A stretch of 64,000 nt of DNA from a virus (Duplodnaviria; Heunggongvirae; Uroviricota; Caudoviricetes): the IMG/VR virus record IMGVR_UViG_2913147268_000005. One strand, written 5' to 3'. The position numbers and the translations under genes were made by a program. How positions within the stretch are numbered: position 1 is the stretch's first letter; each line of letters starts with the position of its first letter. The notes beneath the pieces are model-generated. The model did no database searches. It was not told the DNA's origin and saw nothing but the letters and a program-made list of their open reading frames with translations. This document shows, one piece after another, positions 60,371-61,057 of this stretch.

Positions 60371-61057
60371 TCACTCCTTCTCTTCTTTTCCGTAGTGGAG
60401 TTGGCCAATTTTGATAAGAGGGCGTCCCTGAGATTTGCGGTGTAGATTGGTATCGCGCAGAGAATACACACAGCCACAATATTCCTGCTGATAGAATTTT
60501 TCGCGCTTGCTGATTTCAATCATACGGGACGAGCCGCCCTGCTTGCGCCAGTTATAATCCCAGTACACCATACCCGGATAATGCGCAACAGCTCGCCGCC
60601 CACACTCGTTAACCTGCTGCATATTTTTCCAGCGTGAAATGCCCAGTGAACTGCTGATCACACTGAAACCATTTTCAGCAGCGTACAACGCTGTCCGCTC
60701 AAAACGCATGTCAAAACACATGGTACAACGGATCCCCCTCTCAGGCTCCCATTCCATTCCTTTGGCACGTTCAAACCAGTTGTCGGTGTCGTAATCAGCA
60801 TCGATAAACGGCACGCCGTGTTGTTCAGCAAAGCGAATATTTTCATCCTTACGAATTAAATACTCTTTCTGAGGATGAATGTTCGGGTTGTAGAAAAAGA
60901 TGGTGTAGTCGATTCCCGAGGCCTGAAGCGCCTCCATCACTTCACCGGAACATGGAGCACAGCAAGAGTGCAGTAGTAGTTTGTTTGCCCCGTTTGGGAG
61001 CTCCAATTTAGGCCGTTTGAAATCAGCAATAGTCATAAATATTTTTATTGGGGTCAT
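60371..61057 (-). CDS. queH: QueH-family (DUF208) epoxyqueuosine reductase homologue
   Basis: [15 protein letters not shown]-terminal motif and C-terminal [10 protein letters not shown], both QueH hallmarks. Confidence 0.65.

Follow-up and report, generated by a model that had tools for sequence, protein, structure and literature searches.

In Escherichia coli, the reduction of epoxyqueuosine (oQ) to queuosine (Q) has been described as a cobalamin-dependent step catalysed by QueG (also known as YjeS; Frey 1988 and Miles 2011), and a single yjeS/queG knock-out of K-12 was found to accumulate oQ (Miles 2011; both points as cited in the part of PMC4646009 that deals with this step). QueG and a second oQ reductase, QueH, have been reported side by side in other genera: in Staphylococcus aureus they share one genome, use distinct cofactors and are presented as a cofactor-dependent back-up (in the pertinent part of PMC13443448), and their joint occurrence in 755 Streptococcus strains was read as an adaptation to cofactor availability (in the pertinent part of PMC12632869). 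For viruses, the genome survey of Hutinet et al. in 2019 found no homologues of QueA, QueG or QueH in the viruses that it covered (PMC6884629).

Here, we describe a queH gene that is carried by lambdoid prophages of E. coli and that corrects the impression left by the 2019 survey that viruses carry none of these three genes (PMC6884629). The enzyme as such is already known and there are precedents both for its chemistry and for the redundancy of QueG and QueH, but its carriage by phages appears to be undiscussed, with a vehicle that is new, mobile and strain-variable: our full-text search of the literature returned no paper that links QueH or epoxyqueuosine reductase to prophages or that cites WP_000150294.

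Identity and fold of the prophage protein

The window analysed here (the whole stretch of 64,000 nucleotides, from IMG/VR record IMGVR_UViG_2913147268_000005) contains a minus-strand ORF of 228 aa at 60371-61057 that a preliminary description, made from the DNA letters, had assigned to QueH-type epoxyqueuosine reductases because of its HSCCAPCS and C-terminal YCGC signatures. Both signatures are present (residues 30-37 and 193-196 of the 228-aa ORF), and the assignment holds at every level that we looked at. The ORF matches the Pfam family PF02677 (QueH) over the full length of the profile (positions 1-174 of 175) with 221.5 bits and E 1.1e-65, far beyond chance and far above the Pfam cut-off of 23.5 bits, and the sequences of the Thermotoga maritima QueH crystal structures (7lc5 and others) are matched at E 8e-22 over ORF residues 27-203.

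Though the ORF as originally delimited is real, translation most likely starts not at its first ATG but at the second one, at 61036 (Met8), giving a queH coding sequence of 60371-61036 (minus strand) and a protein of 221 aa. We prefer this start because the identical RefSeq protein WP_000150294.1 begins there, as does the PGAP annotation of identical DNA, because the chromosomal orthologues begin at the equivalent Met, and because the seven in-frame codons in front of it (61037-61057, minus strand), which are probably untranslated, read differently in phage HannyBb (MNLINTF versus MTPIKIF). Residue numbers below refer to the 221-aa form, i.e., the 228-aa number minus 7.

The identity itself is not new, since RefSeq already names the gene in 18% of complete E. 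coli genomes (product name "epoxyqueuosine reductase QueH"), and given this naming queH is less obscure than the preliminary description had implied. A scan of the prophage QueH against NCBIfam gave zero model matches, so the RefSeq name is not based on an NCBIfam equivalog model. PHROGs, in turn, hold the family as phrog_3217 with the label "unknown function". The profile of this PHROG has 188 positions and begins at QueH residue 34, directly after the CCAPC motif (match within 60371-61036); the gene calls behind it are apparently short at the N-terminus, which may explain why they were not recognised as QueH.

In an alignment of 54 sequences (the prophage QueH and 53 homologues of 35-86% identity), 16 columns are invariant, and the prophage protein has the conserved residue in all 16. 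They comprise seven cysteines (C25, C26, C29, C104, C107, C187 and C189) as well as N52, Y59, R62, E99, R103, R111, K137, Q184 and G188. These cysteines form the motifs CCxxC (N-terminal), CxxC (middle) and CxC (C-terminal), which in the work of Li et al. (2021) reportedly hold a [4Fe-4S] cluster and an adjacent iron. From an exhaustive HMMER search (4774 proteins with E values up to 1e-3), we inspected 85 full-length cluster representatives; Cys occupies each of the seven cysteine columns in 60 to 82 of them (81-96% of the residues in the column). A loss of cysteine ligands or catalytic residues, which the preliminary description had raised as a point against its own assignment, is thus not seen: no Cys or invariant residue is missing. 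One visible difference from the T. maritima enzyme concerns Asp13 (CCAPD), a residue for which the structural group working on that protein made a D13N mutant (PDB 9dco) and in whose column the prophage QueH has Cys. We considered that this might be a lost catalytic residue and ruled it out, as Cys is the norm of the family at this position (70 of 75 representatives).

We used the alignment to build an AlphaFold2 model, which reaches a mean pLDDT of 96 and a pTM of 0.91 and superimposes on T. maritima QueH (PDB 7lc5) with a TM score of 0.93 and an rmsd of 1.2 A over 180 columns. The five best PDB matches of the model are all T. maritima QueH (target-normalised TM 0.91-0.93, rmsd 1.2-2.0 A), and the next ones, i.e., TtuA, GMP synthase and argininosuccinate synthase, stay at TM 0.5 or below and have only the general adenine-nucleotide-alpha-hydrolase fold in common with it. 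By every sequence and structure criterion tested, the prophage protein belongs to the QueH family.

Genomic slot and limits of the queH cassette

Within its lambdoid prophage, queH is on the same strand as the early right operon and occupies the interval from the replication genes to the Q antiterminator; the earlier placement of it in the prophage early region next to hokD is fully borne out. Upstream, on the same strand, are O-like, DnaC-like ATPase, DUF1627 and DUF977/Ren-like genes, the latter being the last of the replication module (61211-61651, minus strand; PHROG 142, Ren-like, E 2e-46; DUF977 according to PGAP). Downstream, again on the same strand, follow a hok/sok locus, a small ORF, a DUF968/HNH gene, RusA and the Q antiterminator. 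The hok/sok locus is a hokD-type type I toxin-antitoxin system (59978-60303, minus strand; Rfam RF01794, hokD according to PGAP, MokW-like according to PHROG) in which Mok/Hok spans 59978-60190, hok itself 59978-60133 and the Rfam RF01794 match to sok 60128-60303 (120.5 bits); it is the downstream neighbour and no part of queH function. The DUF968 protein further down (YdfU-like, 351 aa, 58481-59536) is widely annotated as DUF968 only and matches PHROG 96, "HNH endonuclease", at E 1e-166.

In IMG/VR, a close relative is found on at least 190 viral contigs, and the 80 of these that we compared all encode the identical protein. Upstream of queH, homology to the window most often breaks off at ~61646 or 62444, and four loci, whose breakpoints fall at 61100-61214, come closest to the gene. 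On the downstream side, the most frequent end points are 60198 and 59890, and two loci end at 60303. These breakpoints leave ~0.8 kb (60304-61107) as the unit common to all 80 loci, i.e., a minimal queH cassette shared by differently composed lambdoid prophages. The DUF977 gene is the upstream neighbour in 76 of the 80 loci. On the other side, hok/sok follows in 53, a Dcm-type methyltransferase with an NgoMIV-family restriction enzyme in 21, and an IS element sits ~110 nt past the queH stop codon in two. The same methyltransferase and restriction enzyme stand in place of hok/sok downstream of queH in a prophage of O157:H7, and the slot beside queH is one at which addiction and defence cargo is exchanged. 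Examples of this pair of a cytosine methyltransferase and an NgoMIV-family type II restriction endonuclease are found at O157:H7 Z1832 (locus record L001, 9806-11816) and at one of the IMG/VR loci (L019).

Equivalent slots hold queH in the O157:H7 prophage, a Qin-like remnant of E. coli B, a Rac-like element and phage HannyBb, whose 45-kb genome is complete and whose queH is annotated as "hypothetical". Across prophages, the gene was always found in the lambdoid replication-to-Q region (four genome contexts, one phage and 80 IMG/VR contigs). An identical chromosomal queH in the host, the second point that the preliminary description had raised against itself, did not turn up: in none of these contexts does queH lie at a non-prophage E. 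coli locus. The equivalent slot of K-12 Qin contains relBE, ydfV and flxA and no queH, which agrees, together with the oQ accumulation of the queG knock-out (in the part of PMC4646009 cited above), with the earlier statement that K-12 uses QueG and lacks QueH.

Several other features of the window concern the state of its prophage. About 14 kb of IS-rich DNA (42100-56750) split the lambdoid prophage between the lysis/esterase genes and Q; ISL3, IS66/ISEc8, IS110/ISEc20 and IS21/IS100-family transposases are annotated for this stretch in the best-matching genomes, and a colinear match to it was found in none of the complete E. coli genomes of the collection. The segment that normally follows Q is here inverted and located ~55 kb away from it (1753-4704), carrying a DNA methyltransferase, part of the SASA/DUF6645 esterase gene and phage tRNA genes. 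At 2467-2719, tRNA-Met(cat) and tRNA-Arg(tct) are predicted by ARAGORN; the annotation of the related prophage gives tRNA-Ile, -Arg and -Arg, so that the CAU tRNA is probably of the Ile2 type. A P2-family prophage (~4705-23489) with replication endonuclease and P2-type capsid, portal and terminase genes matches elements of O25b:H4-ST131 and other strains at 100% identity. DUF6645/SASA-esterase-like sequence is present on both of its sides, which suggests recombination between copies of the esterase gene.

Signals for the expression of queH are sparse. A scan for consensus sigma-70 promoters and terminators, with counts no higher than in shuffled sequence, found none upstream of the gene on its coding strand; neither ATG is preceded by a Shine-Dalgarno sequence; and an Rfam search (E up to 1) over 59800-61400 returned only sok, with neither a preQ1 nor a cobalamin riboswitch in front of the gene. 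What does stand out is a 13-nt block, TCTGATGCTACAC (61072-61084, minus strand), that is invariant in four diverged prophage alleles and is a candidate for a promoter of its own. It holds a possible extended -10 (TGcTACACT, 61079-61071) that could belong to such a queH promoter, but the evidence for this is weak because the last base of the -10 hexamer is A in the Rac allele. Without its own promoter, queH would be expressed only together with the early operon, and given its orientation in the pR early operon it may be made only after induction.

Distribution, origin and selection

Among 5426 complete E. coli genomes, 995 (18%) contain queH DNA in one or two copies each, and 1014 of the 1017 places are chromosomal. 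Nearly all of these genomes (985 of 995) hold a copy that covers at least 80% of the gene, and identity is 99% or higher in 707 of the 995 genome copies. The exact protein WP_000150294.1 is encoded on at least 1000 contigs and labelled "MULTISPECIES [Enterobacteriaceae]". Accessory queH contrasts with core queG, which is present in all 5426 genomes, including the 995 with queH. The pattern usual for QueH as a non-orthologous replacement, i.e., absence of queG, is accordingly not seen in any carrier; occurrence without queG is, however, not a defining feature of the QueH family, and co-occurrence is known in other genera.

Free phages present a different picture, with matches in only 25 of the 50,697 records of a GenBank phage collection and HannyBb as the one convincing phage. 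The other matching records are short, unannotated metagenome contigs or contaminated ones. A contig named "Acinetobacter phage MD-2021a" (CAKLQH020000001.1, 328 kb) was discarded as a phage carrier because it looks like a piece of bacterial chromosome: its QueH, 78% identical and annotated as "putative prophage protein", lies among soxR, cynX, tadA, ycaQ and a LysR regulator, and the apparently mislabelled record inflates the number of matches in phage databases.

Outside of the prophage cluster, the closest relatives are QueH proteins of other Enterobacterales (78-90% identical), and chromosomal, non-prophage genes of this order encode proteins of 84-90% identity to the prophage QueH. Where their DNA was retrieved, the neighbourhoods are ordinary chromosomal ones: arsC-dapE-ypfN-tmcA-queH...purC-bamC in Providencia, purL-queH-glrK-glrR-glnB-hmp-glyA in Erwinia, and a position beside a LysR regulator and acetyltransferases in the Citrobacter/Klebsiella cluster. 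For this reason, we view the prophage queH as a captured enterobacterial housekeeping gene. The capture was not recent, since dS is saturated between the prophage queH and that of Citrobacter/Klebsiella as the nearest sampled chromosomal donor. Four prophage alleles differ from each other by dS 0.27-0.46 (Nei-Gojobori) at a dN/dS of about 0.05 (0.04-0.065), showing that they are under strong purifying selection and that queH has long been in the phage pool under strong constraint at the protein level.

This constraint is also apparent where the surrounding prophage has decayed. The Qin remnant of E. coli B retains an intact queH although it contains an IS3 and although only parts of the DUF968, methyltransferase and tail genes on either side are left, and in the window queH is intact although the prophage is rearranged and IS-ridden. 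In the Qin-like remnant of E. coli B-DidR, the gene lies between a truncated methyltransferase gene and hokD, has 93.9% DNA identity over the 98% of the query that align, and encodes a protein that differs at 9 of 221 amino acids. Laboratory strains derived from E. coli B may thus differ from K-12 in B12-independent Q formation.

Proposed role and relation to known systems

We consider it likely, with a probability of roughly 70%, that the prophage gene encodes a functional QueH that is useful to the host as a B12-free oQ-to-Q reductase, as predicted from its sequence. The product is predicted to be a small, metal-binding iron-sulfur enzyme of adenine-nucleotide-alpha-hydrolase-like fold that would reduce the epoxide of oQ at position 34 of the tRNAs for Asp, Asn, His and Tyr to Q without cobalamin. 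Taken from an enterobacterial chromosome, queH travels as ~0.8 kb of cargo in the replication-to-Q (nin-like) region. A carrier cell would complete Q even when B12 is unavailable because QueG, as the other route, needs a corrinoid that E. coli is not known to make de novo. Heterologous QueH reportedly complements E. coli queG mutants. The analysis shows that the protein is a QueH with the family's fold and all of its ligand and invariant residues, that its gene is a mobile cassette under purifying selection, how widely it is distributed and that it co-occurs with queG; oQ reductase activity in E. coli, metal binding, expression (its timing and promoter) and B12-independence as the selected benefit are what we infer.

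The same enzyme could also convert oQ to Q on tRNA for the benefit of the phage itself, in which case induction or infection would switch it on with the early right operon and so provide fully matured Q-tRNAs for the translation of phage genes whatever the B12 status of the host. Strand and position of queH, which are those of the delayed-early genes that lie after the replication module and before Q, would fit this, as would its presence in the complete HannyBb genome record and the fact that neither a terminator-like site nor a consensus promoter was found between it and the upstream genes. A phage benefit does not readily account, however, for an intact gene under constraint in prophages that are past lytic growth (the Qin remnant of E. 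coli B, the Rac-type element and the prophage of the window), or for its near absence from sequenced free phages, and we regard this explanation as unlikely. Phage manipulation of tRNA modification had been one of two interpretations offered in the preliminary description; host-beneficial cargo fits the data at least as well, given intact genes in decayed prophages. Alternatively, queH might be a neutral hitch-hiker of recent capture that spreads with its prophages and has no role in E. coli, perhaps being silent. Its redundancy with the universal queG at the level of the reaction, the lack of a recognisable promoter or ribosome-binding site and the many near-identical genome copies, which are compatible with recent spread, could all be understood in this way. 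Neutrality is quite improbable nonetheless in view of a dN/dS near 0.05 at the dS observed among prophage alleles, the ~99% of copies that cover at least 80% of the gene, its integrity beside pseudogenised neighbours and a saturated dS to the nearest sampled donor that contradicts recent capture.

The other earlier interpretation, a repurposed fold, would have the protein act on 7-deazaguanine in phage DNA or on another epoxide or redox target, perhaps in connection with the restriction-modification or toxin genes next to it. It is true that queH sits in a cargo hot spot beside hok/sok or the Dcm methyltransferase and NgoMIV-family restriction system and that 7-deazaguanine modification of phage DNA is well known, but the described phage deazaguanine systems never include QueH (PMC6884629). 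Furthermore, the 47 annotated features from integrase to portal of a 99.8%-identical prophage include no DpdA/TGT-like gene and no preQ0 genes (QueC, QueD, QueE or FolE), PADLOC assigned none of its defence families to QueH, and the neighbours change while queH stays constant. The close identity to chromosomal housekeeping queH genes (84-90%) and the retention of all invariant residues also disfavour a new function, which we regard as highly improbable.

If QueH serves its host as proposed, the wobble base of four tRNAs (oQ or Q) would become a strain-variable, phage-determined trait that does not depend on B12 supply: K-12 would stall at epoxyqueuosine without corrinoids and queH carriers would not. 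Among these carriers are O157:H7, E. coli B isolates and strains in which a co-resident prophage matches ST131. Such a strain-variable tRNA epitranscriptome could affect fitness in niches poor in B12 or in phage- or colicin-resistant cells deficient in btuB. The wider proposal that lambdoid phages deliver an enzyme of the Q pathway for tRNA modification as a lysogenic-conversion gene, with about one-fifth of E. coli strains finishing Q34 without B12, is made more tentatively, and we would put it slightly short of even odds. With it, QueH would become the first enzyme of the Q-specific steps for which carriage by a virus is documented. The subject bears on how prophage cargo genes change host physiology and on the ways in which bacteria deal with corrinoid competition in the gut. 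Its practical side lies in experiments on tRNA modification and translation across laboratory backgrounds, as the E. coli B lineage has queH and K-12 does not.

Compared with T. maritima QueH (PDB 7lc5, 7lc7 and 9deu; PF02677/DUF208, IPR003828), the prophage protein has the same full-length domain, the same fold, the conserved cysteines and the invariant residues, and differs at the position after CCAP as most of the family does. The chromosomal QueH proteins of enterobacteria are of equal size; unlike them, the prophage QueH is carried by lambdoid prophages and coexists with QueG instead of replacing it. As cargo, queH resembles the morons and nin-region genes of lambdoid phages (hok/sok, restriction-modification, Ren-like exclusion) in being a discrete module with mosaic junctions and interchangeable neighbours, for which PADLOC gave nothing but a negligible CARF-like match of the DUF1627 protein. 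Classical morons have their own promoter and terminator. The boundaries of queH are similarly discrete, but the scan for consensus signals was empty and only the TCTGATGCTACAC block offers a possible extended -10. The 7-deazaguanine (preQ0/G+) gene sets of phages (DpdA, FolE, QueC, QueD and QueE) likewise are queuosine-related genes in phage genomes, yet they act before the tRNA-specific steps and modify DNA, whereas the prophage QueH is predicted to act in a Q-specific step. A functional counterpart is found in the same cell: the reaction and tRNA substrates predicted for the prophage QueH are those of QueG, but QueG has an unrelated fold and depends on cobalamin and two [4Fe-4S] clusters, with the corrinoid requirement stated in the part of PMC4646009 cited above. 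Pairs of QueG and QueH in S. aureus and Streptococcus are treated as the species' own gene set, with no mobile element mentioned in the pertinent parts of both papers (PMC13443448, PMC12632869), while in E. coli the second oQ reductase is delivered by temperate phages and varies from strain to strain.
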